The notes: generated by a model not told the origin, from the letters alone. 64,000 nt of DNA from Candidatus Bathyarchaeota archaeon (GCA_963768425.1 CAVYHV010000006.1:192001-256000), one strand, 5' to 3'; shown: positions 8,311 through 27,496, counted from the first letter of the stretch. Made by a program: numbers and translations.

Positions 8311-9525
8311 TTGGAACGGGGCATAGAAGCGTTTGTTTCAAGGCAACTAATCAAAGCCTTTGGCGAGCATAAGCTCGTTACCACAGATGAACAGCTACCT
8401 GGCAGAATTAGAGTTGATTTTCATTTCAAGGATAAGGCTGGCATAGATGTCTTTGTGGAAGTGACGATGAACAAAATAGGCCGCGGCAGCCTAAGCAAAA
8501 TTCTAAACCTGTATTCCGCCCTGTCTAACTTAGAGCCGCCACTTGAAAAGTTTGAGTTAATAGTCGTTGGTCCTGAATTTGAAGCGTCAGCCATGAAGTC
8601 GCTTGGCGGATTGCCTATTCGTTTGGTTACTTTTGAAGACCTTGGAATAACTCGAGCTGAACTTGAAGCGGTTAGAGAGGAGCAGAACCAGTTTCAAGAT
8701 AGGCGACTCTCTCCAGAGGAAGCCAAGTTGGCGGCAATGTGGGAGTCAGAGAAGAAGACTGTAATCCGAGCGAAGGATGTTCAGGATGCTTTGCGTTGTT
8801 CTTCTGGTTATGCTTACGTTTTGCTTCATAATCTTGAGCGAAAACATTGGCTTGAGCGGATAAGCACTGGCCTTTATCAGTTTGTTCCAGCGGCTTATGG
8901 TTACCCTGAAAAGATTCCTCCTGCTAACTCTTTTGCTGTAGGAGCTGCTTTGGTTGAGCCCTATTATTTCAGCTATTACACGGCTAACAGTCATTATGGA
9001 TTTACTACTCAGATGCCGTTCACTCTGTTTGTTGCTACTACAAAGAAAAAGCCAAAGGTTGAGTGGCAAAGCGTCGCTTTCAAGTTTGTAACTTTATCCA
9101 AACGTAAGTTCTTTGGCTACCGTTTTGAAAGGGCGTTTGACGCTAAGGTTTGTATGGCTGAGCCTGAGAAGGCTATTGTTGATTCTTTTGATAAGCCACA
9201 TTATGCGGGTGGGGTTGAGCAGTTGGCAAGGATTACTTGGCGGGGTTTGGCAAAGGTTGATGAGGGCAAGTTGGTGGATTATGCTGTCAGGATGGAATCG
9301 TATGCTTTGGTTCAGAGGCTTGGTTTTGTTGTCGATTCTCTCTCAAAAGAGGGTTTGGTTCAACCGTTAGCTTCTGATCATAGAGGCTTGTTGCTTAGGC
9401 ATGTGGGAAACACTCCGATTTATCTTGATTCCCGAAGGCTAAAGACAGGCTCGTTTTCTAATGACTGGAGAGTCATCGATAACATGCCAAGAGAACAGTT
9501 ACTCAGCGAGATTGAGGTAAGGTGA
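8311..9525 (+). CDS. AbiEi-family type IV antitoxin with extra N-terminal PD-(D/E)XK-like domain
   Basis: wHTH (LERKHWLERISTGLY), YFSYYTANSHYGFTTQMP, EPEKAIVD and QRLGF motifs; N-terminal RVDFHFKD...FVEV. Confidence 0.8.
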   Translation: MERGIEAFVSRQLIKAFGEHKLVTTDEQLPGRIRVDFHFKDKAGIDVFVEVTMNKIGRGSLSKILNLYSALSNLEPPLEKFELIVVGPEFEASAMKSLGGLPIRLVTFEDLGITRAELEAVREEQNQFQDRRLSPEEAKLAAMWESEKKTVIRAKDVQDALRCSSGYAYVLLHNLERKHWLERISTGLYQFVPAAYGYPEKIPPANSFAVGAALVEPYYFSYYTANSHYGFTTQMPFTLFVATTKKKPKVEWQSVAFKFVTLSKRKFFGYRFERAFDAKVCMAEPEKAIVDSFDKPHYAGGVEQLARITWRGLAKVDEGKLVDYAVRMESYALVQRLGFVVDSLSKEGLVQPLASDHRGLLLRHVGNTPIYLDSRRLKTGSFSNDWRVIDNMPREQLLSEIEVR

Positions 9526-9532
9526 GAAGAAA

Positions 9533-10436
9533 ATGCTGGACAAAAAATATGTGACATTTTATGCTCGTTTCTAGTAGAGTCCCCTTGGATGTGGCAGAAC
9601 GCGATATAGTCCTAACCTATGTCTTAAAAGTTTTATCTGACGATATTTTACAAAAGTTGGCGTTTAAGGGTGGTACGTGCTTAAAGAAAATACATTTTGG
9701 AAGTACCGGTAGATTCTCGGAGGACCTTGACTTTACAAGTCAAAGCATTTCCTTAGATGACCTTCAATCTGACCTTAAGAAACTGCTGGACAAGCGCAGC
9801 TATTTCGGCATAGAATTCAAGATTTCAGAGGAGAATGTTCGGAAAGGAGCAGAGGCGTGCGAGCAATCCTACATAGCGGTTATAGGCTATTCTCATGCTT
9901 GGAACACTGCAAAATTCATGTTTGAAGTAAGTTTCCGTGAAAAACCGCTGTTACCTCTTGATGCGTTGCCTTTGTTGGATGAGATGTATTTTAAGTACAC
10001 TGAATTTCCTCGGTTTCCTGTGGTGTGCCTTCAAAAAGAGGAGTTATTGGCAGAGAAGTTGCGGGCTGCATATCAGAGGTTCCGACCCCGCGATTTGTAC
10101 GACCTATACCTGTTTGCAGATAGACACTTTGACAAACACAAAGTACAAAAACTTGCTGTTATCAAATGCTGGAGTGTTAGAGAACCCTTCAGACCAAAAG
10201 ATCTCCTCAATAACATATCAGGGACTAAATATGACTGGAATGATCTTGAACGCTTAGTAAGAAGAGGAGACTCACCTTCCCAAGAAAAGGTTATTGAAAA
10301 AGTTCTCAAGTCATACGCGTTTCTGGAAGAAATGGATAGCACACTTGTCAAGATAATCGATGACTCCAAAGCTCATAAAGAAAAGAAATTAGTAGCGAAT
10401 GTCTTAGAAGCACTAAAACATAACTCTCTGAGTTAA
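9533..10436 (+). CDS. AbiEii-family nucleotidyltransferase toxin
   Basis: FKGGTCLKK, RFSEDLDF and EKLRA...RDLYD motifs; probable ATG at 9533 with an indel before ORF 9561. Confidence 0.9.
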
Positions 10437-10621
10437 TTGAAAAAACAATTTTTCATCTGGTGTCTCATGCCGGTGTAACGCGGACGTTGCCACTTGCCAT
10501 AAGAGTAATTGCCGAAGAAACGTAAATTTACTTTGTCTCTTTCAGTAAAACCCTGAAACCTTGCTCCGCTTCTGATCGGTTAGGCAAGTTTTGGCGCCTG
10601 CGACAGAGTGGAATTTTGGAA

Positions 10622-11866: not shown

Positions 11867-14663
11867 ATGGGAACATTAAATCTTGATAGTATTTTCAACC
11901 CTAAAAGTGTAGCTATTGTCGGAGCCAGTGACGCTGAAGGCTCAGTAGGCTACGCGATTGTAAAAAATTTTACTAAAATGGGGTTCGCAGGCAAAGTTTA
12001 CTTTGTCAACATTCGAAAGCCAGAGATTTTAGGTGTTAAAACTTTCAAGTCAGTCGATCAGATTCCGGAACCTGTCGACCTAGTTATGATTGCCACACCT
12101 GCCAAAACCGTTCCTGACGTCATGGAGGAATGTGGACGGGCAAATGTGAAAGGCGTAATCATAGTGTCTGCGGGCTTTAAGGAAACAGGTGCTGATGGGA
12201 AAGCTTTAGAAGATAGGATTCGTCAAATCGCCAAAAAATATGGAATCCGAGTTGTAGGACCAAACTGCATCGGCGTGCTTCGTCCCAAAAATAATCTTAA
12301 CGCCACTTTTTTGGATAAAATGCCTAAAGCAGGCAATGTTGCTTTTCTTTCTCAAAGCGGAGCTTTAGGCTCAGCAGTTCTTGACTGGGCAATCCATGAA
12401 AACATCGGTTTTAGCAACTTCGTTTCCGTCGGCTCCATGGTAGACGTGGACTTCGGTGACCTGATAGATTATTTCGGTTCCGACCCAAAAACCAAAAGCA
12501 TATTGATGTACGTAGAAGGCATAACGGATGCACGCAAATTCATGAGTGCAGCAAGACACTTTGCAAGAGCCAAACCAATAATTGTAGTCAAATCTGGCAA
12601 ATTCGCTGAAAGCGCAATGGCCGCAGCTTCTCATACGGGTTCGCTCTCAGGAGAAGATGGCATTTACGATGCTGCTTTCAAACGTGCAGGCATTGTAAGA
12701 GTCAGTGAAATCGCAGATTTATTTAACTCCGCGGAAGTCTTAGGATCGCAACCCCTACCCAAAGGTCCGAAATTAGCAATAATCACTAACGCAGGTGGAC
12801 CAGGCGTAATGGCGACGGACGCTTTAATTGCTTATAGCGGCAAGTTAGCGAGTCTAAGCCAGAAATCGCTGGATGCTCTCAACGGCGTGCTGCCTCCTTT
12901 CTGGAGCAAAGGCAACCCAATCGACGTTTTGGGTGACGCGAAAGCTGACCGTTACAAAGCTGCTCTTCAAGCTTGCCTCAACGATGAAAACATCGATGGA
13001 ATCTTGATTATTTTCACTCAGCAAGCAGTGTCAGAAGCAATAGAAATTTCCAAAAACATAGTTGATCTTGTACGCAACAAAACTAACCAAGACAAAACAA
13101 TCTTAACCTCGTTTATGGGTTTTGGCCCAGTTCAAGAAGCCAACAACATCCTAAACGCAAACAACATCCCAACATACTCAACTCCTGAACAAGCAATCAA
13201 AACATACATGTACATGTACGAGTACCAACGCAACAAAGAACTCCTATACGAAACCCCTGAAGAGTTACCCTACGACGATTCACCCCCAAAACGCCCCATA
13301 ATGGTCATACTACGGAATGCTGCATTTGAAGGCCGAGACGTCTTAACTGAAGACGAAGCAAAAAAAATACTCAAATACTATGATTTCCCCATCGTAACAA
13401 CAGAAGCCGCAAACAATGTAGAAGAAGCAGTGCAACTTGCCCAAAACATGGGTTTCCCAGTTGTACTAAAAATTCTCTCCCCCCAAATCCTCCACAAAAC
13501 AGACGCCGGCGGAGTAATTCTAAACATCAACACTCCAAACAAAGTTCGAGAAGCTTTCGAAACTCTAATCCAAAGAGCAACAGCCTACAACCCAAACGCG
13601 CAGATAATCGGTGTTACCGTTCAACCCATGGTTGAGAAAAAAGGCCAGGAAATCATAATCGGCGGAAAAACCGATCCAGTCTTCGGCCCAGTAATACTAT
13701 TCGGTATGGGCGGTGTCGGTGTAGAGCTTTTCAAAGATTACTCAATTGGGATTCCACCATTAAATACAACTCTGATTCACCGCATGATGGAAGACACAAA
13801 CATTTACCAACTGCTCAAAGGATACCGAGGTTCAGCTCCCGTTGATCTTAAAAAACTCGATGAAACCATGCTGCAATTCTCGCAGTTGCTTGTTGATTTC
13901 CCACAAATAAAAGAAATTGACATCAACCCACTCTTAATCAACGAGAAAGAAGCATGCATTCTTGACGCCCGCATCGTAATTGACAAAGATGCAGTTTGCC
14001 GCAAATTTGAGTTACACGAACACATGATTATTAGCCCTTACCCAAAAAAATACGAAACAATTTGGCGCCTAAAAAGCACACAAGAAGTACTGCTGCGCCC
14101 CATAAAGCCAGAAGACGAACCCATGTGGCTTGAAATGTTCCAAAGCTTCTCAGAAGAATCCATACGATACAGATTCTTCCAAATGCTAAAAGACACTCCA
14201 CGTGAAGTTCGAGTCCGCTACTGCAACATCGATTATGACAGAGAAATCGCAATTGTCGCTGAAATGGTTGAAGAACGGAAAAAGAAAAATCCTCGGTGTA
14301 AGCCGCGTCATCATTGAGACTGATGGAAAAAGCAGTGAAATGGCCTTCATCGTAAGCGACTACTGGCAGGGACTAGGTTTAGGAACTAAAATGGTTGACT
14401 ACGCGCTTGACATCGCAAAAGAAAAAGGCGTCGAAAGCGTCTACGCAATAATGCTGCAAGACAACTACAGAGCTTTGAGCTTGACAAAGAAAATGGGCTT
14501 TAACCTTGAATACTTAAGCGACGGAACAGTCAAAGCATCACTTAACTTAAAAAACGAAGACATAGATTCACGATGCCTAATAACAAATGTACCTGAACCA
14601 CTTCAAGAACAAACAAAGCAACCAAAAACCGCGAAAACAGAAGAAAAGACCGCTCCGGCGTAA
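11867..14663 (+). CDS. Bifunctional acetate-CoA ligase (ADP-forming) family protein / GNAT acetyltransferase (Pat-like), frameshifted near 14275
   Basis: CoA-binding domain, GPNCIG, SQSGA, SHTGSL, ATP-grasp HKTDAGGV; GNAT WQGLGLG motif in ORF 14202..14663. Confidence 0.9.
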
Positions 14664-14675
14664 TCGATAAGGTAC
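14417..14675 (+). repeat. Left copy of ~250-bp direct repeat (3' end of the Pat-like gene)
   Basis: Near-identical to 20751-21010. Confidence 0.9.
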
Positions 14676-14828
14676 ATCCTTCTTTCTTCGAATAATTATT
14701 CAATTTTGAGTAATAATTGGGGTCACCTTTTTCACATTGGTGTCTGTGTGCTTAACTTATTTTTGAATATGGAGTGTCTGAAGAATACTTTTATCTGTGA
14801 GTATGAAAATTATACTTTTGGTAATAAA

Positions 14829-15119
14829 ATGGGGCAAGAAGAACCTGAGATTGCAATCGTTGGAACAAAAGGTCAAATAGTTATCCCACAACGACTCCGA
14901 AAAGAACTAAACATAATTTCAAAAACAAAACTCATAGTATACCGATCAGGGGATAAAATTGTGGTAACCAAGCTGGAGCTTCCACCTTTGAAGGAAGAAT
15001 TAAAAGATCTTTTCAGCGAAATTGATAAACAAAACAAGGGCAAAAAGATTTCTGACAAGGAAATTTTGACGGAGATTCAAACTTACAGACTTGAGAAGCG
15101 GGCCAAAAAAGGCGCATAA
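14829..15119 (+). CDS. AbrB/MazE/SpoVT-family antitoxin
   Basis: VGTKGQIVIPQRLRKELNI; probable start MGQEE at 14829. Confidence 0.88.
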   Translation: MGQEEPEIAIVGTKGQIVIPQRLRKELNIISKTKLIVYRSGDKIVVTKLELPPLKEELKDLFSEIDKQNKGKKISDKEILTEIQTYRLEKRAKKGA

Positions 15120-15120
15120 A

Positions 15121-15528
15121 ATGGCTCGAGTGGTAGTTGACACGAATGTTTTGATATCAGCGTTGATTAATAACGGAAAGTCAAGAAAACTTGTCCTTAA
15201 ATTGTTAGAGGAACATACAGTAATATTATCTAGTCAGATATTAGCTGAATTGGCTGATGTTATCTCAAGAGATAAATTTTCTGTTACAAGCTCTCAGGTT
15301 GACAGGTTCATTTCGATTCTGGTTAAAAAGGCAACTATCGTTTCAGTGCGTTCCATTCCAAAGGTCATATTGGAAGATCCTGACGACGATGTAGTCCTCG
15401 CCACTGCTCTCAGTGGAAAAGCCGATTACATAGTTAGCGGCGACAAGCACCTCCTCAAAATAGCTTGTTATGATGAAGACGCAGATAGTTTCCGTGAATC
15501 AATTTATTCAAATTATAGCCAAGCGTTA
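15121..15528 (+). CDS. vapC: PIN-domain toxin (VapC-like); C-terminal indel
   Basis: VVVDTNVLISA, DPDDD and DYIVSGDKHLL motifs; natural end in the shifted frame IVSVNQFIQIIAKR* at ~15528. Confidence 0.85.
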
Positions 15529-15571
15529 AGGAACATCTTGAAAGCAAGTGTGGATCGGCAGTTCCAAGTTT

Positions 15572-16681
15572 TTAGATTTTCACTTTGCAAATTTCGTATA
15601 CAATCAAATGCGGATACTTCAAGTAAAACCTATACAAATGAGGATTTTCTTTTTCAAACTCAACACTTGGATCAGGCTCATAAATCCTACAAATAGCCAA
15701 ACCATTCTCACTAAGAGCGCTCGTCATTTCATCAAGGGTAAACCAATGATGCGGATTGTCTTTAACCTTGAACTCTATTTTGTAGTTAGGTAAACGTCCA
15801 TGAAAGCGTCCGTTGCTCGAGGAAGTTATGCCTTTTGCAAGTTGACCAAAAAACGGATGCGCCTCAATAATAAAAAATCTACCCTGATCAGCCAGAATTC
15901 TACTGATTTGGCTTAAAGCTTCGGAGAATTCCTTGTGGTTATGTGTTTTTCTGCAATAGTCAAAACTCACAATTGTATCTATAGCCACAATATAGTCAAA
16001 GTATTTGGAATGCACGTTTTTTGCAAAATCAAGAAAATCCCACTGAAAAAACTCTTCGTTATCAAGGTCTAGTCTTTTTTTGAGTTCGTTTGCTTTTTCA
16101 ATTAGAAATGCGCTTCGGTCAATACCGGTCACGTGTGCTCCAAGTTTAGCCAGAATCGTGGAATAATATCCTGGTCCGCATCCAAAGTCAAAGATCTTTT
16201 TTCCTGCAATTTTCTCTTTCGTAAAGAATTGTGCAACAAAATTTTCTACGCAATATTTGTAGTAGGTTCGGCTTTCAGGTCTTATGTCTGAAACGTCATC
16301 GTAAAATTTCTTTTTAAACCATTTTTCCATAATTCCCTGCTGATCATCATGTTCCTTCAAAGCTTGAGGAATTGCTGTTTTCATTGCTTTGTTGACAGCT
16401 GAAACCAACATCTCTTCGACGTTTTGCATGGACCCGTTTGAACAATCATTGCCTATGATTTTTTCGCCAAATGCAGAGTTTAACCATTCTTTGTATTCAG
16501 GCAACGTTTTTTCTAAGACTTCATGGATTGTTGACTGCAGTTTTGCATAAATTTCTGGATCCAATTGTTCAAAAAGCTGAACTTTTTCCGAAGGCGCATT
16601 CAGGTGTTGATTTTGCTTTTTGGCTATTGCAGGCTTTTTAGAGAGGGTTTTAGTTGTTGGTTTATTTTTTGGCAAAAACAA
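15572..16681 (-). CDS. Class I SAM-dependent methyltransferase with N-terminal precursor-homologous domain
   Basis: IFDFGCGPG motif I, VTGIDRS, FDYIVA; residues ~1-112 align with the precursor at 18480..18938. Confidence 0.85.
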   Translation of the reverse strand: MFLPKNKPTTKTLSKKPAIAKKQNQHLNAPSEKVQLFEQLDPEIYAKLQSTIHEVLEKTLPEYKEWLNSAFGEKIIGNDCSNGSMQNVEEMLVSAVNKAMKTAIPQALKEHDDQQGIMEKWFKKKFYDDVSDIRPESRTYYKYCVENFVAQFFTKEKIAGKKIFDFGCGPGYYSTILAKLGAHVTGIDRSAFLIEKANELKKRLDLDNEEFFQWDFLDFAKNVHSKYFDYIVAIDTIVSFDYCRKTHNHKEFSEALSQISRILADQGRFFIIEAHPFFGQLAKGITSSSNGRFHGRLPNYKIEFKVKDNPHHWFTLDEMTSALSENGLAICRIYEPDPSVEFEKENPHLYRFYLKYPHLIVYEICKVKI

Positions 16682-16776
16682 TCGCTGCTCTATTTATGAT
16701 CTCTCAAGATAATATTTATGGGTTTAGTGGTTCAAAATAAAGACATAGCTGAGGCATTTTCTTGAAAGTAAATTTG

Positions 16777-18366
16777 TTAATAATATGGAACGATTATTTT
16801 TAAGGGATAATTTCTTTTTGAGCTTGACGTTTTTCCCATGCTTAAGCGGTTCCAAACCGAACGGAGATTTTCATATCGTTGGCTATCGGGCAAAGGCGAA
16901 TAAAAATAACTATAATTATTTCCTGTTTTTTCTTTGCTCAGCTCTATTCCATATTCTTGCGGGTTATGAGAAATTTCTGAATCAGGCAAAACCCCAAAAC
17001 GTGAAATGCTGACTTGATCAATAAATTCTTGGTTTTGCTCTAAGAAAGCAACGGATTGTTCAAAATCTCTCTGAGTTTCCCCTGGAAAATCTACTATCAT
17101 AAATGTCAAAACGCGAATGCCATTCTTTGCAGTATCGCGGATCACGTTTTTAGCAGTTTCTATGTCATACCCTTTTTTCATCTTACTCAGAATTCTCTGG
17201 GACCCAGATTCTATGCCAAACCACAACCCGATACAACCCGCCTGCCGAATTTTCCCAAGCAATTTGTCGTTCATTTCAGAACGAACTCTGGCCATACCCA
17301 TCCACTGCATTCCGATATTTTCTTCAATCAATAAATCGCAGAGTTTCTCCAAAGATTTGATGTTACAATTTATCAAGCTGTCATTGAAGCGAATGGTGGA
17401 AACTCCATATTTTTCTTTGATATGCTTGAATTCCGATACTATGTTTTCTGGTGACCGCATCCGATACGTGTTGCCCCATAGACGTTTTTCAACACAAAAA
17501 ACACAATCACCAACACAACCTCTAGAGCCCACAACCGGCATTATAGGCATCCCGAACTTGTTTTGAGGATATTCCTCCAAGGGCAAATTATCGTAGTCGG
17601 GAAAAGGCAAATCGTCAAGAGATTTAATTAATGGTCGATCGACGTTAGAGATAATTTTGCCCCTCTCATTTCTGAAGGAAACTCCATCGATTCCCTTTAT
17701 TGAATCTAAACTTCCGCCATAGAAATTAGCTATGTCAGCGATTGTGGACTCGCCCTCCCCTCGAACTGTTACGTCAATTTCTGGGTTGGCAGACAGAACT
17801 TCTTCCCATGAAGCGAATGCCGGACCCCCCAAAACTGTCAAAATTCTCGGTTGAATTTTCTTTAATTTACGTGCGAGAAGTATGCTCCACATCAATCCCG
17901 TATGAGTTATTACATGAAATCCCACAACACTTTGACCTTTGGGATCGTTGGCTATCTCCATAAACCATTCATTACAAATTTTCCAAACATCCGACAGTGT
18001 CGTCTGTTTTGATTCTTCGCTGATAATATCTTTGGACGTTGAATTTGAATATGTATAACCTAATTGATCAGAAGCCTCTTTCAGCATTATTTCTTCAAAA
18101 ATTTTTTGGGCATTTTGAATGGTTGAATAAATTTCTGTGTCAGGAACCTTTTTCCATTTCGCCCCTCTCTTGATGCCGCTTTTTCTTAAAATTTCTCCAG
18201 GTTTGATTTCGAGTCCTTGATGGAAAAGAGTTAAGTTAAAAGCTTTAATATTCAGATCAAACGTGCTTACCTTTTGATTATTTGCATTTAAGGTGCTTGT
18301 CAAGTATGGAATTGCGGGATAAGGAACTAAGGAAGAAACTGGAGGGATGCAAAGAAAAACAGGCAA
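16777..18366 (-). CDS. Cobalamin-dependent (class B) radical SAM enzyme, probable RiPP C-methyltransferase
   Basis: B12-binding region (VLGGP, VRGEGE), SRGCVGDCVFC CxxxCxxC, FGIESGSQRILSKMKK, FPGET. Confidence 0.88.
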   Translation of the reverse strand: MPVFLCIPPVSSLVPYPAIPYLTSTLNANNQKVSTFDLNIKAFNLTLFHQGLEIKPGEILRKSGIKRGAKWKKVPDTEIYSTIQNAQKIFEEIMLKEASDQLGYTYSNSTSKDIISEESKQTTLSDVWKICNEWFMEIANDPKGQSVVGFHVITHTGLMWSILLARKLKKIQPRILTVLGGPAFASWEEVLSANPEIDVTVRGEGESTIADIANFYGGSLDSIKGIDGVSFRNERGKIISNVDRPLIKSLDDLPFPDYDNLPLEEYPQNKFGMPIMPVVGSRGCVGDCVFCVEKRLWGNTYRMRSPENIVSEFKHIKEKYGVSTIRFNDSLINCNIKSLEKLCDLLIEENIGMQWMGMARVRSEMNDKLLGKIRQAGCIGLWFGIESGSQRILSKMKKGYDIETAKNVIRDTAKNGIRVLTFMIVDFPGETQRDFEQSVAFLEQNQEFIDQVSISRFGVLPDSEISHNPQEYGIELSKEKTGNNYSYFYSPLPDSQRYENLRSVWNRLSMGKTSSSKRNYPLKIIVPYY

Positions 18367-18479
18367 TTTAGATCATCTTAACTGTTTATACCCATTGGTT
18401 TTATGGTAGCTACTACTTTATGGCGTAAATCGGAGAACTATTTTTCAGTTGATGGCGTTGGTTTCTGAACCGAAGCTTC

Positions 18480-18938
18480 TTATTTGAACTGATCTTTCAA
18501 AGCTTGACGAATTGCTCCCATCATAGCCTCATTGACAGCATTAACAACCATATCGTCCATTTTTCTATTTGGTGTAGGGCAGTCGTTACCACATGAGCTA
18601 CACAAAGGTGTTGGACAGTCGTTTCCACATGAACTACAAAGCGGCGTCGGGCAATCGTTACCACATGAACTACACAAAGGTGTAGGGCAATCATCAGCTG
18701 CTATCAAAGAAGCATCAACCCACTGCAGATATTCTGGCAAAGTTTTTGCAACGGTATCACGAATTGTTGACTGCAGTTTTGCATACATTTTAGGATCCAG
18801 TTTTTCCACAGGTGGCATTTTTGCCAAGAGTTTCGTTAAACGTTTCTTTTGTGCTGGAGTCAGTTTTTTTGCTGATGGAGCGGTAGTTGGTTTTTTTGAG
18901 GAAGCTTTAGGTGTAGATTTATTTTTTGACAAAAACAA
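18480..18938 (-). CDS. Putative multicore RiPP precursor: leader + (DCPTPLCSSCGN)x3 + DCPTP + follower
   Basis: Cys-rich perfect 12-aa repeats between two helical segments; lies between two radical SAM genes. Confidence 0.8.
   Translation of the reverse strand: MFLSKNKSTPKASSKKPTTAPSAKKLTPAQKKRLTKLLAKMPPVEKLDPKMYAKLQSTIRDTVAKTLPEYLQWVDASLIAADDCPTPLCSSCGNDCPTPLCSSCGNDCPTPLCSSCGNDCPTPNRKMDDMVVNAVNEAMMGAIRQALKDQFK
18571..18692 (-). repeat. 36-bp coding tandem repeat x3.4 with only synonymous differences
   Basis: Units differ at GAT/GAC, TGC/TGT, CCT/CCG/CCA, ACA/ACG, TTG/CTT, AGT/AGC and GGT/GGA. Confidence 0.95.
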
Positions 18939-19020
18939 TCACTACAATGATGTATTAAGTCGTCTTATTTAATGTTTATTGTGAAGCAAATTTGAGGTTG
19001 GATCATTTGGGGAAAACTCT

Positions 19021-20438
19021 TCAACTTTTGGTTTTTGCATTTTTGTTTTTTTGAGATTCCAACAGGAAATTGTACGAAATTAGGAGCTTTAGTATTTCAT
19101 TTTGAAAAGTGCAAAAGTAGTCTTCTTTTATGCCAAGTTGCCCCGTTTTAACATAGATATCGTAAGCGCATCCTCCGCCGCAAATTCCAATCGCAGCACA
19201 TCTCATACAGTCTTTATTCTTTAGTGTCCCCATTTCCAGCCATTTATAAAACACGGGTTCTTCTTGAACTTTCAAATCATCTTTAATTGGAATTTGATAT
19301 TTTCCCGACGGATAAAACGCGTGGCAAGGACCCACTGTTCCAGTTGGCGAAAAAAATAGTAGTTGACCAAAAGCTGGGCAATCGTAAAGGTGGAATATTT
19401 CTTTGAAAAAATAATTTGCACGCCGATTATCAATGCGATCTTCAAACATGTGCAATTCTTTTGCTTTTAAGTAGGCCCCAAAAAGATGATGAGCAAGCTC
19501 TTTGGGGTCTGGAACTTCAAATTCGCTTGGCTCTTTAAGTCTGGTCAACAAGTTGAAGCCTATGGTTCTGACGCCTAATTTCTGGATAAATTCTATTATT
19601 TCTTCTGTGTGCTCATAGTTCTGTTTCGTAATGGTGCATGATATTCCTGTGTTTACACCCGCCTCTTTTAGAAGCGCCAACGCTTTGAGTGCTGAGTAAA
19701 AGGTTTCTTTTCCATCGGTGAAAACACGGTTTTTGTCAATGTTAGCCCACCCGTCAAGCGACAACCCCACGGTAACGTTGTGTTGTTTAAGTTTCTTAGC
19801 TATGTTTTCGGTTATTAGGCTTCCATTTGTTACGCAGGAAAACAAGAATTTACCTTAGAAGCCGCCTCAAGCTTCTCCATGATATAGAATACAATTTCAC
19901 TATTGCTAAACGGCTCTCCCCCATAAAAAGTGACCCTGTATTCTGGAACCTGTTTTGCCTCGTTGACAAGAACATTTATGACTTTATCAGCCAAATCCTT
20001 AGACATCACTGCACTTGGGCCTTTTAGAGAGTTTTCTATAAAACAGTAACCGCACCTGAAATTGCAGAAGTCGGTAACCAAAATGTAGGCAAGATTGGTT
20101 TGTGGTTTTTTTCTAAGCAGACTGGTTGCAAGAGTTTCAAAAACTTTTTCCTCATTAAAGCCTTGAGGAACCAAAAATTTTAGTTCCATTAACTCTTTAA
20201 TGTCCTTGCCATGCTCGCCCTCACTTAGATCTGCCAAAACCTTTTCGTACTTTTTGTTGGTTAAGTACACTTTCTTTAGAGTTAAAGAATTGAAAAGACA
20301 CTTCGTTGATTCATCAATATCAAACAAGTGGACAAACGGCGAAAGAACCCCTTGAGCAAGCTCTTCACGGAGCACTCGCTCAGAAGACTGGTTTTTATTC
20401 ACAATCACATTAACCGCCTTAGATTGTTTCTTGCTCAT
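19021..20438 (-). CDS. Radical SAM/SPASM peptide maturase with N-terminal RRE-like domain; frameshift near 19850
   Basis: CNFRCGYC, FYGGEP, TNGSL, SLDG; SPASM motif CPAFG...GPC...CMRCAAIGICGGGC...FC; split across ORFs 19830..20438 and 19021..19845. Confidence 0.9.
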
Positions 20439-20750
20439 TTACCCACCCAAAAAGAAAACCATCTTAAATGTCCCTAAATTAACAAATTATTAAAATCTTT
20501 CCTAAATCCCATTGACGACCATTTTCGATGTACAGGATAAACCTTTTGTGTTTTTCCATTACTTAATTGTGAAAAATAATGGTGCACCCTTGGTTACCCT
20601 TCTTTCTATTTGGCTGTTTCGAATCTGGCTGCTTCAATTTGAACCGGTCCTCAAAAAGACAACGAAACTATACAGTTAAGTTATCGAGATTATCAAAAGT
20701 AGACTTGTTTGCTCTAAAACAGGGCACAATTTATATTGAGTTGAATAATA

Positions 20751-21010
20751 AAAAGAAAAGGCGTCGAAAGCGTCTACGCAATAATGCTGCAAGACAATTA
20801 CAGAGAGCTTTAAGCTTGACAAAGAAAATGGGCTTCAACCTTGAATACTTAAGCGACGGAACAGTCAAAGCATCACTTAACCTAAAAAACAAAGACATAG
20901 ATTCACGATACCTAATAACAAATGTACCTGAACCACTTCAAGAACAAACAAAGCAACCAAAAACCGCGAACACAGAAGAAAAGACCAGTCCGACCTAAAC
21001 AAAAAGGTAC
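20751..21010 (+). repeat. Right copy of ~250-bp direct repeat (orphan duplicate of the Pat-like gene 3' end)
   Basis: Matches 14417-14675; encodes the same KKMGFNLEYLSDGTVKASLNLKN...EEKT tail. Confidence 0.9.
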
Positions 21011-21083
21011 CACATAGTGAAGCGCATTTATTGTTTTTCTTCTTCGTAAATTTTGAGCTCGAAAAGAATTTGCTTGTCCTTTA

Positions 21084-21356
21084 TTATTCTACATTAAGCT
21101 GATTAATCGCGCTAACGAATTTTTCCCAGTTGTCTTTCCTAATTCCTAGTTGCTCCGTAAATAAGAAACGACCGCTCGGATTAAACTTCAAAATCCTAAT
21201 GCAGAAGCGGTGGTCTAATTTTTGAGCGACTTCTTCATTCCATTCATACAGCCAAAAAGTGGTTTTAAATCCGTCTGGCATTGTAATTTCGCTCAACTGT
21301 TTCCTGGTTTTCCAAGCTCTTTTTCTTTTTGCTACCACTGTAACGCTTCCTAACAT
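21084..21356 (-). CDS. Small hypothetical protein, possibly PC4/PUR-like nucleic-acid-binding fold
   Basis: Beta-rich with C-terminal LGIRKDNWEKFVSAI helix; co-oriented with vsr. Confidence 0.45.
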   Translation of the reverse strand: MLGSVTVVAKRKRAWKTRKQLSEITMPDGFKTTFWLYEWNEEVAQKLDHRFCIRILKFNPSGRFLFTEQLGIRKDNWEKFVSAINQLNVE

Positions 21357-21408
21357 GACTGACTATAATCTGCTTCATTTGTTGCTAAAAGCTAATAAGT
21401 TTAAGTAG

Positions 21409-21849
21409 TCAAATTTCGAACGAAAACGTTTGGTCATTAAAAAAATGGGCTCTAATTGAAAGCTCACTTAGGATTCGCTCTAAAACCGCCTCTCTATTCT
21501 CGAGCTCGTGTTCCCATATTCGCATAACAATCCACCCTTTATTTTCAAGGCGTAATGTTGTTTCTATATCTCTTAATTTGTTCTTATTCAATTTAGGAAT
21601 CCAATACTCTTTGTTACTTTTAGGTAAATGCCCGTGGATTGGACAGCGGTGCCAGAAGCAACCATCAACGAAAATTGCTATCTTTCTTTTAGGAAACGCA
21701 ATGTCTATTTTTTCTTTGCCATATTGGATACTGAACCTAAACCCCTTTGCCCACAATGCCCTTCTCAAAGCAACTTCAGGCGTTGTGTTTTTGGAACGTA
21801 TGGCAGACATTATTTTTGAACGCTTTTCTTTAGAAATTGTGTCTACCAT
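21409..21849 (-). CDS. vsr: Very short patch repair endonuclease
   Basis: DTISKEKRSKIMSAIRSKNTTPE, FVDGCFWH and RIWEHE motifs; start MVDT at 21849. Confidence 0.93.
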   Translation of the reverse strand: MVDTISKEKRSKIMSAIRSKNTTPEVALRRALWAKGFRFSIQYGKEKIDIAFPKRKIAIFVDGCFWHRCPIHGHLPKSNKEYWIPKLNKNKLRDIETTLRLENKGWIVMRIWEHELENREAVLERILSELSIRAHFFNDQTFSFEI

Positions 21850-21891
21850 AATTCTCAAACGTTTTATATTACTTCCAAACAATATTAGCGT

Positions 21892-22749
21892 ATGTGCCCC
21901 AACATACTAACAACAATAAAAAGTATTTCAGAATTCAGAAATAACGATCTCAAAAATTACTTCGCAACTTACCCTATCCGCATAAATCAAGTTGGGCAAC
22001 AATTGGAGTTTTACGTCAAAGATGCTATATGTGGCTCTTTCAAGTCTAACAAGACCGAAGACCTAGCTCACACTAAAGGGGTCTTTTCCTACTTAGGTAA
22101 TCAAAACAACCCTCCTGACCTCATTATTGCCAATGGTGACGCCTACGAGATAAAGAAAATCGAGAACCTCAAGGCTTCTCTTGCACTTAATAATTCCCCA
22201 CCAAAAGACCAACTTCATAGAGATGACCCAAGGATTACTCAATATTGCCGAGATTGTGACGGAGGCAATTGGAAAAGCAAGGAAATTTTTTATACTGTGG
22301 GGTGTGCTGAAAAAACTAAACTAAAGCATCTGTTCTTCATACATGGTCGTTGCTACGCCGCAGACAAAGAAATTTATGAAAACAAAGCAACCCAATTGAA
22401 AGAAGGCATCGACATTTTTTTCAAGTCAAAGGGATGGGAGACCACCAAAACAAAGGAATTGGGTCGAATAAATAAAATGGACCCTCTTGGCATTACAAAT
22501 TTTAGGATTCGCGGTATGTGGGAGATAGAAAATCCACTTAAGGTTTTTTCGTACTTATACAAGTTCGATGAACGGAAGAGTTTTTCGTTAGCCGCTCTTA
22601 TGACGAAAGAGAAATACGGTTCTTTCCCAAAAGAAGATAAAATGGCATTGGAAAATGATGACAAAATTACCTCAAAGACAGTAATTGTCAGGAACCCCAA
22701 TAATCCTGCTCAAGACGTGGAAGCTCAGCTTATTACCTCATGGTGGTAA
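21892..22749 (+). CDS. Type II restriction endonuclease, NgoPII-like (probably GGCC)
   Basis: FSYLGNQNNPPD...AYEIKK and DPLGITNFRIRGMW motifs; adjacent to a C5 methyltransferase. Confidence 0.8.
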   Translation: MCPNILTTIKSISEFRNNDLKNYFATYPIRINQVGQQLEFYVKDAICGSFKSNKTEDLAHTKGVFSYLGNQNNPPDLIIANGDAYEIKKIENLKASLALNNSPPKDQLHRDDPRITQYCRDCDGGNWKSKEIFYTVGCAEKTKLKHLFFIHGRCYAADKEIYENKATQLKEGIDIFFKSKGWETTKTKELGRINKMDPLGITNFRIRGMWEIENPLKVFSYLYKFDERKSFSLAALMTKEKYGSFPKEDKMALENDDKITSKTVIVRNPNNPAQDVEAQLITSWW

Positions 22750-22761
22750 ACGCTGGAAATA

Positions 22762-23766
22762 GTGTCTCTCTTTTCAGGTTGCGGTGGGTTAGACCTTGGA
22801 TTTACGAATACTGGTTTCGAGTTAGTCTATGCAAATGACAATGACCCAATAGTCTGGGAGACTTTTGAAAAGAACCACAAAATAGCTATTGACAAGCGTT
22901 CTTTGTTTGAGATTAAATCCTCTGAAATACCTGATGCAGATGGAATAATTGGTGGTCCTCCTTGCCAAAGTTGGAGCCTTGCAGGAAAGATGCGTGGCGC
23001 AAAGGATGAAAGAGGACAGCTATTTTATGAGTACGTTAGAGTGCTGAAGGATAAGCGACCCAAGTTTTTCCTTGCTGAGAATGTCCCAGGAATTGTTTCC
23101 AGGACACATCTTCCGGAGTTTAAGAATATCTTAAGGAGGTTTTCTTCGCTGGGTTATGAAGTCTCCTTTGGGCTAGTTGATGCCCGAAATTATGGTGTTC
23201 CCCAAGACCGTAAAAGAGTGTTCATGATCGGTTTTAAAAAAAGTCTCAAGTGCCGATTTAAATTTCCTGAGCAAACACATTCAGAACTTGGCGGAAAGAC
23301 CCTCGATGGCAAGAAAACTTTCAAATGGTTGACATTGAAAGATGCTATTGGAGACCTTCCTGAACCCATTCGGGCTCTTGATAAGAACAAGGCTAACGGC
23401 AATCTAGCTATCCCTAATCATGAGTATATGAACGGAAGCTTTTCATCCATGTATATGTCTAGAAATAGACGAAGAACTTGGGACGAGCCTTCCTTTACAA
23501 TCCAAGCTGGCGGAAGGCATGCACCTTTACATCCAGGTTCCGCTAAGATGACAAAAGTTGAGACTGATCTGTGGAAGTTTGAGGGAGATAGTCCTCAATT
23601 CAGGCGTTTGTCAGTAAGAGAAGTTGCGAGAATTCAGACATTCCCAGATGATTTCAGGTTTTATTACACGAATATTGCAGATGCCTACAAGATGATTGGG
23701 AATGCGGTTCCGGTTAAGTTGGCAGAAGTTCTAGCGAAAAAGATCTCTGAAGACCTTAGTGTCTAA
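22762..23766 (+). CDS. DNA (cytosine-5) methyltransferase, M.HaeIII-like
   Basis: LFSGCGG, GGPPCQ, ENV, QDRKR and IGNAVP motifs; target recognition region MSRNRRRTWDEPSFTIQAGGRHAPLHP resembles GGCC enzymes. Confidence 0.92.
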   Translation: MSLFSGCGGLDLGFTNTGFELVYANDNDPIVWETFEKNHKIAIDKRSLFEIKSSEIPDADGIIGGPPCQSWSLAGKMRGAKDERGQLFYEYVRVLKDKRPKFFLAENVPGIVSRTHLPEFKNILRRFSSLGYEVSFGLVDARNYGVPQDRKRVFMIGFKKSLKCRFKFPEQTHSELGGKTLDGKKTFKWLTLKDAIGDLPEPIRALDKNKANGNLAIPNHEYMNGSFSSMYMSRNRRRTWDEPSFTIQAGGRHAPLHPGSAKMTKVETDLWKFEGDSPQFRRLSVREVARIQTFPDDFRFYYTNIADAYKMIGNAVPVKLAEVLAKKISEDLSV

Positions 23767-24171
23767 GTTAAGCACTTGACCCGTCTTATGAGTGCAAAGC
23801 ACAACCAATCAACGAGTCTTACAAGCTGACCGTCAGAAATACGGGAGATACTCTTCGAAAAACTTCTCGGACGTGAGAGATTAAACGATTTCATGGCGTT
23901 AACCGAGAGATTTGGAATGGAATTTGGATTGAGACATGGATAAAGTTGCCCTTTCCAGGGGCCATCAGTAGCCCTAAACTGCTGGTACTTTATCCACCGC
24001 TACGATCTACAACAATTTTAATCGAACCGATTGCAGGCTAATTAAATAAATGCAGCCAATCATCTTCAAGAAAGAAAATTGCGCCAAGCAAGTAACAAAG
24101 GAGTCAAGAAAGCTGTCAAAAATAAGCTGCCGCATTGACATCGATAAATCAATTTAAGATAAAGGCATTTT

Positions 24172-24840
24172 TTAGAACTTTTGTGTTCCTTTTTCCAAAT
24201 CTATCAGATATTTGCATTTATCACAGAGTTTCTTTCTGAATATAATACCGGTTTCTCGGATGCAGTTAGGGCAAAACGCTTTGCCACAATTACTGCAATT
24301 GACAGTTTGATTCATCTCTAACTTTTTTTGACATACCGGACAATATGTCATTATGTTCAATAGTTTTCCAGAGTAACCGAACCTTGAATCCTCATATTTG
24401 CTTCCGTCAGGTTCTTGTCTTTCAATGTACCATAACGGCACTTGAACAAAGCCGCTTTTTAAAATTGAAATTGTGTTTTTAAAGGGGACGAAAACTCTAT
24501 CGGAGGATCTGTTTCCATAGTGTACTGTGTAGTGCTCTGTGTTTTTGTTGATGAAGTAGTTTAGAGCTACTTCTTTTGCCTCATGGAAGTTTGCAATTTC
24601 TAGTTGGTTTATTGTTAACCTGTACTTGTTTTCGGTATCAATAATATAACTTTCAGCAAGATTGACATTGATCTCTTGTAGCAGTAATCCGTTATCGACA
24701 ACTTTGCCATTACTTGCATCTAGTGTTATTGTGTAATGGTCTTGAAAGAGGTGACGTCCGACTGACGCTCGAAAGCTAAACTCGAAAAGATAATAAGAAA
24801 AGAACCTGAGTTCCTTGACAATTGATGTTTCCGCGGGCAA
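24172..24840 (-). CDS. Hypothetical protein with C-terminal multi-CxxC zinc finger (possibly the C-terminal part of the upstream PLD gene)
   Basis: CPVC, CSNC, CPNC and CDKC motifs. Confidence 0.55.
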   Translation of the reverse strand: MPAETSIVKELRFFSYYLFEFSFRASVGRHLFQDHYTITLDASNGKVVDNGLLLQEINVNLAESYIIDTENKYRLTINQLEIANFHEAKEVALNYFINKNTEHYTVHYGNRSSDRVFVPFKNTISILKSGFVQVPLWYIERQEPDGSKYEDSRFGYSGKLLNIMTYCPVCQKKLEMNQTVNCSNCGKAFCPNCIRETGIIFRKKLCDKCKYLIDLEKGTQKF

Positions 24841-24875
24841 TTTGTTTATACGGTATTCTTAATGGCAATGCATTT

Positions 24876-25361
24876 TTAATTAAACGTTGCGTGGTAGAGG
24901 TTAATTGGTCTTCGTGTCATGTTTTGGTTTTCATATTTCAACCATGTTTTCATGAAGTTGTGTTCCAGTTCTTTGACTTCTTCAGAAGTCTCAGTTATGC
25001 TAAGTGACTCTACGTTGGTATTCAAGCCACTGTATGTTAGATTTGCCGATCCTGAAACACCATACGACCCATCGACTATGTACAATTTTGAATGAATAAA
25101 GGTTGACTTCTCAGTGTTCTTATCTATGACTAAGAAATTTAGATGCATATTTTTTGCTTTTTCCAAGATAGCTATGGAGTCCATGTTTAAAGGGTCGTTG
25201 CTTGTGATGATTCGCACGTCAATTCCACTTTGAGATAAGAAAACAAGTTTTTCAGCGTAGTCTTTTCCTATCCATGGACTAATAATCCATGCCGATTTCT
25301 TGGCGTTCCACAATAGAGGCGTGATCTTAGAGCCAGCGCCAGCATCTAAGTAAGCTTTCAT
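24876..25361 (-). CDS. Phospholipase D-family nuclease domain protein
   Basis: ISPWI and IHSKLYIVD...GSANLT...NVE (HKD motif). Confidence 0.8.
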   Translation of the reverse strand: MKAYLDAGAGSKITPLLWNAKKSAWIISPWIGKDYAEKLVFLSQSGIDVRIITSNDPLNMDSIAILEKAKNMHLNFLVIDKNTEKSTFIHSKLYIVDGSYGVSGSANLTYSGLNTNVESLSITETSEEVKELEHNFMKTWLKYENQNMTRRPINLYHATFN

Positions 25362-25482
25362 CGAGTCTAACCTTATATTGAGGATAGATAGGGCTATTCT
25401 AATTAAATTCTTATGATTTCACAATTAGTATTTTGGTTTTGGTTCACGCTGCTCTTCCTTCATGTTCAGTCCGCAAATCTGA

Positions 25483-25727
25483 CTATTTTTCAATTATCTT
25501 CATTTCGTTTCGTTGGCTGGTTATGGATAGGTGGGCGAAGGTTGAGTCTTTGGTGGCGCCGTGCCAGTGTTCTTCGCCTGGAGATATGAGAACTATTGTT
25601 CCGGGCGTGGCTGCGTGTTGTTGGATCTTGGTGGCTATGATTCCTTTGCCTTCGGTGATTATGTGGATTTGTTCGGTTGTGTGGGTGTGGAGTTTGTTGC
25701 GTGCACCTAACAAAACTTCTGGAGGCT
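25483..25727 (-). pseudogene. Cupin-domain gene, 5'-truncated
   Basis: LHTHTTEQ...EGKG...PGEEHWHGAT; 5' end replaced by the abrB module starting at ~25730. Confidence 0.7.
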
Positions 25728-25867
25728 GGTTTTATTAGATATCTATTTTAGGTAAGAATGTAAGATTATATTCGGGGTAACGTGAATGACTCAAAGTGAA
25801 AAGGCCAACTTACGATTCTCAGCGAAAAAGGCGAAGTTGTTATACCTGCAAAAATAAGGTCCCGAAT

Positions 25868-27496
25868 GAGAGTGTGTGAAAAGTCTCATTTTTTGCCAGC
25901 CACTTACCGTTAAGCTTAAAGCTAGCCTTAGAACAACTGAAAAGCCATGAGCGAACATGTAAATGGAACCCACAGAGACCAAACAGTGCTGTTCCCAGAT
26001 ACCATCAACAAGTACGTTGAAAAAGAAAACCCGGTTAGGTTCATCGACGCTTTCATAGATAGCCTTGACCTGGAAAAGCTTGGCTTCAAACACTCAATTC
26101 CGGCTGAAACTGGAAGACCCTCTTACAATCCTTCAGACTTGCTAAAACTCTACGTTTACGGCTACCTAAACCAGGTCAGGTCTAGCAGGAAATTGGAGAA
26201 AGAGTGCCACCGAAACGTTGAAGTTATGTGGCTTATGAAGAGGCTTGTTCCAGACTTCAAAACCATTGCTGATTTCAGGAAAGATAACGTCGACTGCATC
26301 AAAGGCGTATTCAAAGAGTTTGTTTACCTCTGCAGGAGCTTGGATCTTTATGGTGCTCAGCTGGTAGCCATCGATGGTACAAAATTCAGGGCTGTTAACT
26401 CACGGGGCAACAACCTCAACGAGAAAGCAGTCGCTCTAAGACTCAAGCAGACAGAGGAAAGGATAGCAAAATATCTCAACGAATTAGACCACAATGATGC
26501 GTCTGATTCAGACGGAGATGGAGCAGTCAAGACCGATGAGCTTAAAGAAAAAATAAGCCAGTTGGAAGAGAAGAAGAAGCAGTACGAGCATATTCAAGAG
26601 CAGATGAAGGCCACAGGCCAAAGGGAGATTTCTCTTGTGGATCCTGATAGCCGCTTGATGAGAGTGGATAGTCAACGGTTTGAAGTCGGCTATAACATTC
26701 AAACATCAGTCGATGCGAAACAGCATCTAATCGTTGATTATGATGTGATAAATAACTCAACTGACCATCATCAGCTAGCCAAGGACGCCTTTGCAGCAAA
26801 GGAGACCTTGGGTGTGGATGAGCTTGATGTTTTGAGTGACAAGGGATTCTATGTTGAAAAAGACGTCTCAGACTGCGAGAACAATGGTATTACTGTCTTC
26901 ATGCCTATACCCGCCGTTTTGAGCCCTTACAAGAGTATTGGTGTTCCAGCGCCTGAGTTCTACAGCGACAAATTTGTTTATGATGCTGCTAAGAACGTGT
27001 ATGTTTGTCCTGCAGGCGAAGAGTTGAAGTTTTGTAAGTGCGTCTACAGAGATGAACCTGAGAGAGGCAGGGTTTACAGGACTGCTAGTTGCGCTGTCTG
27101 TGTTTTTAGGGGCAAGTGTACGAGGAACAAACGTGGACGGACTATGGTTAGGTCTGAGTATGATGATGCAGTTGAGCGTCTAAGGGTTAGGTTGAAGGGT
27201 CTTGATGGACGAGAGAAGATTCGTTTGAGACGGATGCTAGTGGAGCATCCGTTTGGGACTATTAAGCGTGCTTTCAATCAGGGCTATGTGCTATTGAAAG
27301 GCTTGCGAAAGGTTAGAGGAGAGGTCGGATTTACGATGCTGGCTTACAACATGCGACGGGCTATCAATATTCTTGGAGTTGGTATGCTGATGGGCTTCAT
27401 TAAGGCGTAGAAAAGAGAAAACAAGTGAACAATAGTAGCTAACAGCTTGAGTGATAGATACTCTTAGGATTTAGCTCTGAGTTTTCACACGGTCTC
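25868..27496 (+). mobile_element. IS1182-family insertion sequence with 18-bp imperfect inverted repeats and 4-bp GAAT target duplication
   Basis: Left IR GAGAGTGTGTGAAAAGTC; right IR (reverse complement) GAGACCGTGTGAAAACTC; GAAT at 25864-25867 and 27497-27500; empty site visible in the paralog at ~47025. Confidence 0.93.
25947..27410 (+). CDS. IS1182-family DDE transposase
   Basis: GRPSYNP, SSRKLE, PDFKTIADFR, IDGTK, DKGF and VEHPFGTIK motifs. Confidence 0.95.
   Translation: MSEHVNGTHRDQTVLFPDTINKYVEKENPVRFIDAFIDSLDLEKLGFKHSIPAETGRPSYNPSDLLKLYVYGYLNQVRSSRKLEKECHRNVEVMWLMKRLVPDFKTIADFRKDNVDCIKGVFKEFVYLCRSLDLYGAQLVAIDGTKFRAVNSRGNNLNEKAVALRLKQTEERIAKYLNELDHNDASDSDGDGAVKTDELKEKISQLEEKKKQYEHIQEQMKATGQREISLVDPDSRLMRVDSQRFEVGYNIQTSVDAKQHLIVDYDVINNSTDHHQLAKDAFAAKETLGVDELDVLSDKGFYVEKDVSDCENNGITVFMPIPAVLSPYKSIGVPAPEFYSDKFVYDAAKNVYVCPAGEELKFCKCVYRDEPERGRVYRTASCAVCVFRGKCTRNKRGRTMVRSEYDDAVERLRVRLKGLDGREKIRLRRMLVEHPFGTIKRAFNQGYVLLKGLRKVRGEVGFTMLAYNMRRAINILGVGMLMGFIKA

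Follow-up and report, generated by a model that had tools for sequence, protein, structure and literature searches.

A candidate RiPP-like cassette for modification of a cysteine-repeat small protein in one genus of Bathyarchaeia

Closest described systems and the Bathyarchaeia cassette

The closest counterpart that we can name for the locus reported here is the Crp system of Methanococcus voltae, described in 2026 and made up of CrpA, CrpB and CrpC (PMC13692751). In that account the motif C-X-X-Q/D is called suggestive of thioether formation by radical S-adenosylmethionine (rSAM) enzymes, CAVD is given among the modified motifs of CrpA, and modification went further when CrpB, a protein that has CrpA's first 47 residues, was co-expressed (PMC13692751). 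Here we describe a cassette of four same-direction genes, ~4.9 kb in all, on the minus strand at positions 15572–20438 of a 64,000-nucleotide stretch of DNA from a Candidatus Bathyarchaeota archaeon (GCA_963768425.1, CAVYHV010000006.1:192001–256000); this whole stretch is referred to as the window. The genes encode an rSAM/SPASM enzyme, a 152-aa protein with Cys repeats, a cobalamin (B12)-binding rSAM enzyme (B12-rSAM) and a class I methyltransferase, and all four are present as an earlier note, made from the sequence alone, had read them. We consider the cassette probably to be a system resembling those of the peptides that ribosomes synthesize and that are then modified post-translationally (RiPPs), one that makes a post-translationally modified small protein and is accessory in a single genus of Bathyarchaeia; to judge from their relatives, the enzymes most likely cross-link and methylate the Cys-repeat mini-protein.

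The two systems are alike in being archaeal and in placing an rSAM/SPASM enzyme with a RiPP recognition element (RRE; here predicted) beside a protein of more than 100 residues that carries tandem Cys repeats and C-X-X-D/Q motifs. Each also has a second cluster protein with the N-terminal region of the substrate, although here that protein has the C-terminal flank as well and is fused to an enzyme. Since neither system has a known protease or exporter, the product in both would be a modified protein rather than a peptide. The differences are nevertheless considerable. CrpC belongs to TIGR04463, against which the enzyme here scores 91 bits (cut-off 525); CrpA ends in ten 17-residue repeats, whereas one to five 12-residue units lie between conserved flanks here; the cluster as described is without a B12-rSAM or a methyltransferase, both of which we find; and the Crp host is a methanogen rather than a member of the Bathyarchaeia, in which the flank-sharing protein is an enzyme.

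Other systems share single components with the cassette. CteB, the maturase of the SCIFF peptide (thermocellin), forms a Cys thioether on a Cys-rich peptide. Its structure (PDB 5wgg) is the best match to the rSAM/SPASM enzyme in both sequence and fold, over the N-terminal domain, the rSAM core and the SPASM region; identity, however, is only 18–20%, the score against TIGR03974 is 100.8 bits (cut-off 425), and SCIFF precursors are peptides of ~45 residues with a C-terminal core, unlike the 152-aa protein with its internal repeat. The ranthipeptide maturases of the PapB family (NF047865), which make side-chain thioethers at repeated Cys-x-x-x-Asp/Glu motifs, are the second-best NCBIfam match, but the score is 144.1 bits (cut-off 340), the match covers residues 119–434 only and so omits the N-terminal domain, and the spacing here is C-x-x-D/Q. 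In the borosin-type protein OphMA, methyltransferase and precursor form one polypeptide, and in the cassette, too, a methyltransferase is covalently joined to precursor-derived sequence; here, however, the fused part is N-terminal and lacks a modifiable core, the substrate is a separate gene, and the methyltransferase is of the class I Rossmann type. The 529-aa B12-rSAM, finally, finds its best NCBIfam matches among the cobalamin-dependent rSAM C-methyltransferases of RiPP pathways (ApyD, TIGR03975), with which it has a B12-binding domain and an rSAM core in common; ApyD beta-methylates a Tyr of its precursor (PMC13703928).

Taken as a whole, the cassette is most like the Crp system in its logic and lies outside every named family tested. 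It differs from known systems in the repeat, in the position of the repeat between conserved flanks, in the pair of putative methylating enzymes and in the copy of the flanks borne by an enzyme. In the full-text literature we found no paper on this core, on its motif strings, or on rSAM RiPPs or rSAM biosynthetic clusters in Bathyarchaeia; a 2025 survey of archaeal RiPPs, in one passage, mentions ranthipeptide-type clusters in general terms. The earlier note did not recognise core or architecture from a described class; the papers found describe no such core, and Crp is a close precedent (PMC13692751).

Distribution and synteny

We scanned species-representative genomes and obtained 31 loci, from 21 assemblies; with the window these made 32 neighbourhoods for comparison. 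Thirty of the 31 loci are labelled Candidatus Bathyarchaeota. The gene order rSAM – small protein – B12-rSAM – methyltransferase recurs in 21 of the 31 as well as in the window, and a second small-protein gene stands ahead of the methyltransferase in 6–8 of this set of 21 loci plus the window. Two loci lack the B12 gene only (2 of 23 otherwise complete cassettes), three hold the rSAM and small-protein genes alone or a fragment, and five are orphan small-protein loci, all of them in assemblies that also have a full cassette. The Cys-rich substrate gene adjoins the rSAM gene in 26 of the 31. When the open reading frames (ORFs) of the 32 neighbourhoods were clustered, only three families, all belonging to the cassette, occurred in more than nine loci, antisense artefacts aside, and no protease or transporter family was conserved near the cassette, in keeping with the remark in the earlier note that the cluster encodes neither.

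In an even sample of the class, the small protein was found in four of 401 genomes, all of one genus. Of 101 genomes sampled from that genus, 18 have an rSAM ortholog (E ≤ 1e-60) and the same 18 have the small protein (E ≤ 1e-10); the enzymes and the small protein, which the earlier note had assigned to one system, do co-occur, both here and in the 21 loci of shared gene order. Because related genomes are not independent and the genes are adjacent, we read this as one patchy cassette and not as a statistical association.

The single locus not labelled Bathyarchaeota, L027, is a 10-kb contig labelled Candidatus Sulfotelmatobacter, on which two tandem rSAM/SPASM genes precede the gene for a small protein of four units whose C-terminus is extended by a Lys-rich stretch; the contig is probably archaeal and was mis-binned. 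Large proteins, with full-length copies of 820–946 aa, are encoded beside cassettes or orphan small-protein genes in L009, L016, L020, L025, L026, L028 and L030. The one in L020 (L020:10507–12972) has matches to the PQQ_2 beta-propeller and to Ig-like domains, and the L016 copy that was scanned has a signal-like N-terminus and no Pfam match.

The Cys-repeat small protein

The presumed substrate (18480–18938, minus strand), delimited by its ORF, its homologs and their alignment (A1), begins with a basic N-terminus, followed by the conserved segment EKLDPxxYAKLQ, the repeats and, at the C-terminal end, another conserved segment. The repeat runs to 3.5 units of 12 residues with three Cys each, and the 152 aa hold 10 Cys in all. 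The array itself (18570–18692, minus strand; direct-repeat family D2) is made up of three 36-nt units encoding three exact copies of DCPTPLCSSCGN and a terminal DCPTP, just as the earlier note had it. The units are the same in every residue and differ from one another at 4, 6 and 9 of 36 bases, all synonymously; identity of residues despite this many synonymous differences shows that the repeat is selected as a peptide and is not the product of recent slippage.

Neither Pfam nor NCBIfam has a match for the protein, and a search of the ESM Atlas gave no usable one. In a large protein collection we found 158 homologs at E ≤ 0.01; among the 120 listed, identity ranges from 49 to 90%, and one is named as coming from a Bathyarchaeia archaeon. 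Across 258 units from 121 proteins the consensus is [DQ]-C-P-[TV]-x-x-C-S-[SA]-C-x-N, present in 1–5 copies and falling into two main types, CSSCGND and CSAC[SDA]NQ. Asp or Gln stands at +3 from the third Cys (C-x-x-D/Q) in 274 of 278 sequence windows in these proteins, and a protein with n units holds 3n+1 Cys, i.e. four in the one-unit forms.

The flanks match the repeats in conservation (alignment A1). They also act as a single unit that can stand alone when the repeats are missing, as in the N-domain of the methyltransferase (see below), which suggests that the flanks would form a folded module and the repeats a loop inserted into it. The 'multicore precursor' proposed in the earlier note calls for refinement: as the repeats lie between two conserved flanks, which the methyltransferase bears too, the picture is more that of a modified small protein than of a peptide with leader and core. 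The small gene is covered by contigs from two metatranscriptome libraries, each of a different study; one of these contigs (237 nt) matches the window without a difference, and of the enzyme genes the contigs take in no more than scraps.

A subfamily of the small protein (~50–57% identical, 165–203 aa) has an extra Lys-rich C-terminal tail and comprises members in L024, L025, L027 and L028 together with P0065, P0092, P0108 and P0120; its genes in L024, L025 and L028 lie apart from cassettes.

The rSAM/SPASM enzyme

The gene of the putative rSAM/SPASM peptide maturase, with its predicted N-terminal RRE-type domain, occupies 19021–20438 (minus strand), as delimited from ORFs, Pfam and NCBIfam matches, the ortholog alignment and an AlphaFold2 (AF2) model. 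In the window it reads as two ORFs: 19830–20438 (202 aa, with the CxxxCxxC motif) and 19021–19845 (274 aa, with a seven-Cys SPASM array). Pfam Radical_SAM matches both halves, the SPASM domain TIGR04085 scores 44.4 bits (NCBIfam cut-off 27) and the segment LMELKFLV lies in the N-terminal half, so that the three hallmarks cited in the earlier note are all found. In an alignment of 102 relatives, C125, C129 and C132 of CxxxCxxC are invariant, and the SPASM residues C354, C372, C411, C414, C420, C424 and C443, all seven of which are in the ORF of the window, are conserved. These relatives are the best of 387 that were found at E ≤ 1e-30 among 1.84 billion representative sequences. A profile built from 14 intact orthologs, in turn, finds CteB (5wgg) at E 1.3e-25 and TigE (8vpo) at 7.8e-22.

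An AF2 model of an intact ortholog that was built from the 14 close orthologs alone had a mean pLDDT score (from the predicted local distance difference test) of 50.3, and was replaced by one built on the 102-row alignment (pLDDT 93.5). The top structural match of the latter is CteB (Foldseek E 1.7e-20): model residues 33–461 superpose on residues 1–450 of the chain with Z 35.2 and a root-mean-square deviation of 3.4 over 407 residues (VIA), as one would expect of the RRE-bearing rSAM enzyme that the earlier note had in mind. TigE, anSME, ChlB and SuiB are the further structural neighbours. TigE aligns from model residue 26, anSME and ChlB only from about residue 110. Within the N-terminal region, residues 33–108 are modelled as four strands and then two helices, with a short strand and one more helix after them, and the pLDDT is 95–98 over residues 30–107, with strands preceding helices. 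As CteB, but neither anSME nor ChlB, is matched over residues 33–108, this stretch corresponds to the N-terminal peptide-binding domain of CteB, which is reported to be an RRE and is lacking in the other two; on the evidence of the model, the N-terminal domain here qualifies as RRE-type in the same sense.

The best NCBIfam families for the enzyme are all peptide maturases. For the intact ortholog L001 the order is FibroRumin (TIGR04136, 184.7 bits, cut-off 400), PapB, SCIFF and TIGR04463 (the CrpC family), the last three with the scores given above. A predicted complex of the rSAM enzyme (alignment A3) with the small protein (alignment A1), run without controls, scored 0.00, 0.62 and 0.00 against a mark of 0.32 and is given no weight here. 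PADLOC matches were considered as a sign of a defence function and set aside, being at the level of superfamilies only (mad2 for the methyltransferase, pVip for the rSAM core and PDC-M51A for the B12 enzyme).

Outside the orthologs, the enzyme's nearest relatives (P0123–P0128, P0134 and P0135; alignment A4) are 36–45% identical to it and 554–596 aa long and have a C-terminal GNAT-like extension, by which they would be classed as rSAM/SPASM–acetyltransferase fusions. A metagenome search with these relatives, which used generic rSAM patterns, returned distant rSAM/SPASM genes (best matches 29–34% identical) with short Cys-rich ORFs nearby, some of them presumably SCIFF-like. Filtering for Cys-rich ORFs left 171 from 80 loci, mostly spurious frames, and nothing among them was similar to the flank–repeat–flank design of the small protein.

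Two putative methylating enzymes, one with a copy of the flanks of the presumed substrate

The third gene (16777–18366, minus strand) encodes the 529-aa cobalamin-binding enzyme, of the class B type by its domains and its best NCBIfam matches. Its Pfam matches, B12-binding (PF02310, 34.5 bits, cut-off 32.1) and Radical_SAM (PF04055, 68.6 bits), and those of the methyltransferase bear out the assignments that the earlier note had made for the two genes. The best NCBIfam matches of the B12-rSAM are ApyD (NF050148, 160.6 bits, cut-off 750), HpnJ and TIGR03975 (144.2 bits, cut-off 281.85), and with scores so far under the cut-offs it is not a member of ApyD or TIGR03975; PDB sequences yield generic relatives only.

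The methyltransferase gene (15572–16681, minus strand; ORF and Pfam) falls into two parts. The catalytic domain, at residues ~116–369 (15572–16336, minus strand), has Pfam matches to Methyltransf_31, Methyltransf_23 and Methyltransf_25 over residues 147–330 (Methyltransf_31, E 2.6e-19), and its relatives among PDB sequences are weak and generic (PH0226, MitM, UbiG-type, CypM and BchM). The N-terminal ~115 residues (16337–16681, minus strand), on the other hand, are paralogous to the small protein's two flanks, a relation that goes beyond the earlier note. BLASTP aligns residues 1–150 of the small protein with residues 1–111 of the methyltransferase (77 bits, E 9e-22), the gap falls exactly at the Cys repeats, in whose place there is an 8-residue linker, and the paralogy is visible in the DNA as well (repeat families D3, D4 and D6). 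The whole N-domain is in frame in 19 of 23 orthologous methyltransferases examined, each with an 8-residue linker replacing the repeats. None of the N-domains examined has a CxxxxCxxC unit, and the position of the single linker Cys varies between C, S, G, A and Y. By analogy with CrpB, the nearest precedent, the N-domain would most plausibly serve to recruit the enzyme to its substrate or to the rSAM complex.

Genomic setting

The block around the cassette is bracketed by a direct repeat of 261 bp, also new relative to the earlier note, the two copies of which (plus strand; repeat search) are 93% identical and duplicate the last ~250 nt of a gene for a fusion of an ADP-forming acetyl-CoA synthetase (ACS) with a GNAT domain. 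The left copy (14417–14675) is the true 3' end of that gene and the right copy (20750–21010), upstream of the rSAM gene, is a detached duplicate. Between them, along with the cassette, lies a pair of genes for an AbrB/MazE-type antitoxin and a PIN-domain toxin (14706–15696, plus strand; Pfam). No integrase was found between the copies, and among the matches scored in a search of the genus only the genome of the window itself has two full-length copies of the stretch. The AbrB/PIN pair is not conserved beside the cassette in other loci and is not part of the conserved cassette.

On a larger scale, ~13.6 kb of the window (14676–28238) has no counterpart in G451, the closest cassette-free relative in the sample, which is 93–95% identical across the upstream 14 kb and whose flanks are 88–96% identical and rearranged downstream. 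Besides the AbrB/PIN pair and the cassette, this stretch holds genes for Vsr, an NgoPII-type restriction enzyme, a C5 DNA methylase, a phospholipase D (PLD)-type nuclease and an insertion sequence (IS) transposase, and by this comparison it looks like a strain-specific island. As G451 lacks a counterpart, the cassette is accessory and part of a variable island.

Some neighbouring genes call for comment. Relative to L004, the ACS/GNAT gene (11867–14663) has one base too many near 14265 and so breaks into two frames. The PIN ORF (15091–15696) overlaps the 3' end of the opposite-strand methyltransferase gene by 125 nt, so that its final ~40 codons read the methyltransferase in antisense; this explains why tblastn has hits to them at every locus, and the real PIN protein is probably not as long as the ORF. 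A gene for an AbiEii-type nucleotidyltransferase toxin (9561–10436) lies in a further stretch (~8076–10611) without a match in G451.

A proposed pathway and its alternatives

If the enzymes act as their relatives do, the pathway might run as follows. The 152-aa protein would be the substrate, held at its conserved N-terminal part by the RRE-type domain of the rSAM/SPASM enzyme, which would use a 5'-deoxyadenosyl radical and two auxiliary Fe-S clusters to join a Cys sulfur, as a thioether, to a side-chain carbon a few residues on. In each 12-residue unit the third Cys would most likely pair with the Asp or Gln that stands at +3 from it. Given how regularly C-x-x-D/Q recurs (the 274 of 278 windows above) and the precedent of Crp, we favour one side-chain (ranthionine-type) link per unit, so that the other two Cys of a unit would stay free and might bind metal. 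The B12-rSAM would add C-methyl groups to unactivated carbons, and the class I methyltransferase a further methyl group, finding the substrate or the rSAM complex by way of its own repeat-less copy of the substrate flanks. The product would be neither cleaved nor exported by a dedicated system and would act inside the cell, where the modified small protein probably stays. One can go further and imagine the core-less copy as a recruitment handle, a helical hairpin that pairs with the identical hairpin of the substrate or docks onto the RRE of the rSAM enzyme, so that a complex assembles around the Cys-repeat loop and yields an intracellular, thioether-stapled and methylated mini-protein, metal- or redox-active, of soil and peat Bathyarchaeia; this fuller picture is speculative, and we think it rather unlikely to hold in all its parts.

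Several observations weigh against a cross-linked and methylated product. The rSAM gene is frameshifted in the window, whose copy may thus be dead. The spacing C-x2-C-x3-C-P resembles metal-, Fe-S- or ferredoxin-type motifs, and the Cys could therefore be ligands rather than donors of cross-links. Conservation of the flanks equal to that of the repeats is unusual for a leader that is to be discarded. The intact ortholog L001 is below every curated NCBIfam cut-off, so the reaction cannot be read from a named family. Likewise, of the RRE named in the earlier note, the CteB-type fold appears in the AF2 model, but the Pfam PqqD/RRE model has no match at E ≤ 10 on the N-terminal 118–120 residues of the enzyme beyond chance ones. 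The RNA-library contigs, for their part, are assemblies that mark presence in RNA libraries and neither prove transcription nor rank the genes, and stretches of the cassette that they leave uncovered are not taken as a sign of silence.

Could the small protein be no substrate at all, but a metal-thiolate or Fe-S protein (an electron carrier, cluster donor or metal buffer), with both rSAM enzymes acting elsewhere? The three invariant Cys per unit, the Pro after the first and the spacing just mentioned would fit such a protein, as would the 3n+1 rule, with four Cys in the one-unit forms, and flanks conserved as in a folded protein. The copy number of 1–5, however, means that the Cys count (4, 7, 10, 13 or 16) tracks no fixed cluster stoichiometry; the adjacent rSAM enzyme has a CteB-like peptide-binding N-terminal domain, its nearest named families are all peptide maturases, and no other candidate substrate is conserved in the cassette, all of which makes a purely metal-binding role improbable. 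That the system is as proposed and the cross-link a different one, i.e. a sactionine (S to alpha-carbon), a link to another acceptor such as Thr or Asn, or no thioether, deserves more weight, although we think it unlikely. The enzyme is under every family cut-off, its structural neighbours CteB, TigE, anSME, ChlB and SuiB span several chemistries, and two further features of the unit are invariant, the Pro-Thr/Val that follows the first Cys and an Asn; on the other side, the near-constant C-x-x-D/Q is the motif tied to ranthionine formation in CrpA, and PapB, the second-best NCBIfam match, is a ranthipeptide maturase. A classical secreted RiPP, antimicrobial or signal, whose repeats are excised and exported by a protease and a transporter encoded elsewhere, is in our judgement very improbable. 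Multi-unit cores of variable copy number are typical of multicore precursors, bacteriocin clusters are often accessory and patchy, and the small protein and its cassette answer to both descriptions; but the 32 neighbourhoods hold neither a conserved protease nor a conserved transporter, the C-terminal flank is conserved like the N-terminal one and is kept in the methyltransferase domain, and the small protein, as read from its sequence, begins without a hydrophobic signal segment.

The frameshift bears on the window more than on the family. Relative to the closest orthologs, L022 and L001, whose frame is open, one G is missing from a GGG run at ~19850–19852, the indel that the earlier note had suspected near 19850. 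It may be an error of assembly. It may also be real, with the cassette decaying here and the small protein unmodified or not made: the site is one base short relative to all aligned orthologs, the island that holds the cassette also has an IS element and toxin–antitoxin genes, and only 18 of the 101 genomes sampled from the genus have the cassette. We nevertheless hold decay to be the less likely explanation by some way, as the missing base is in a short homopolymer and a one-base indel also occurs in the conserved ACS gene 5 kb off. Breaks of this kind are numerous in the well-conserved genes of related assemblies (the B12 gene of L002, for example, is in five pieces at 73–91% identity), a pattern typical of indel errors in assembly. 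Moreover, in soil DNA run X1 all depth over the site (7.84 + 3.62 of 11.5; two contigs, from related strains) has the extra base that restores the frame, and both halves of the gene are still 85–96% identical to orthologs.

Implications

As far as we know, next to nothing has been learned of peptides or proteins with post-translational modifications in the uncultured Bathyarchaeia, some of which, in soil and peat, have the cassette described here. If it makes the product that we propose, it extends the class of 'proteins with RiPP-like thioethers', known from Crp (2026), to a second archaeal lineage, and adds to that class two methylating enzymes and an enzyme with a copy of the substrate flanks. 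Part of its interest lies in its many natural variants, which differ in the number of units (one to five), in the type of repeat (two are found) and in whether the B12 enzyme is present. A recruitment handle, if true, would mean recognition by mimicry of the substrate, a mode of which RiPP enzymes offer no described example, and the role of the methyltransferase N-domain could thus reveal a new way in which tailoring enzymes find their substrates.

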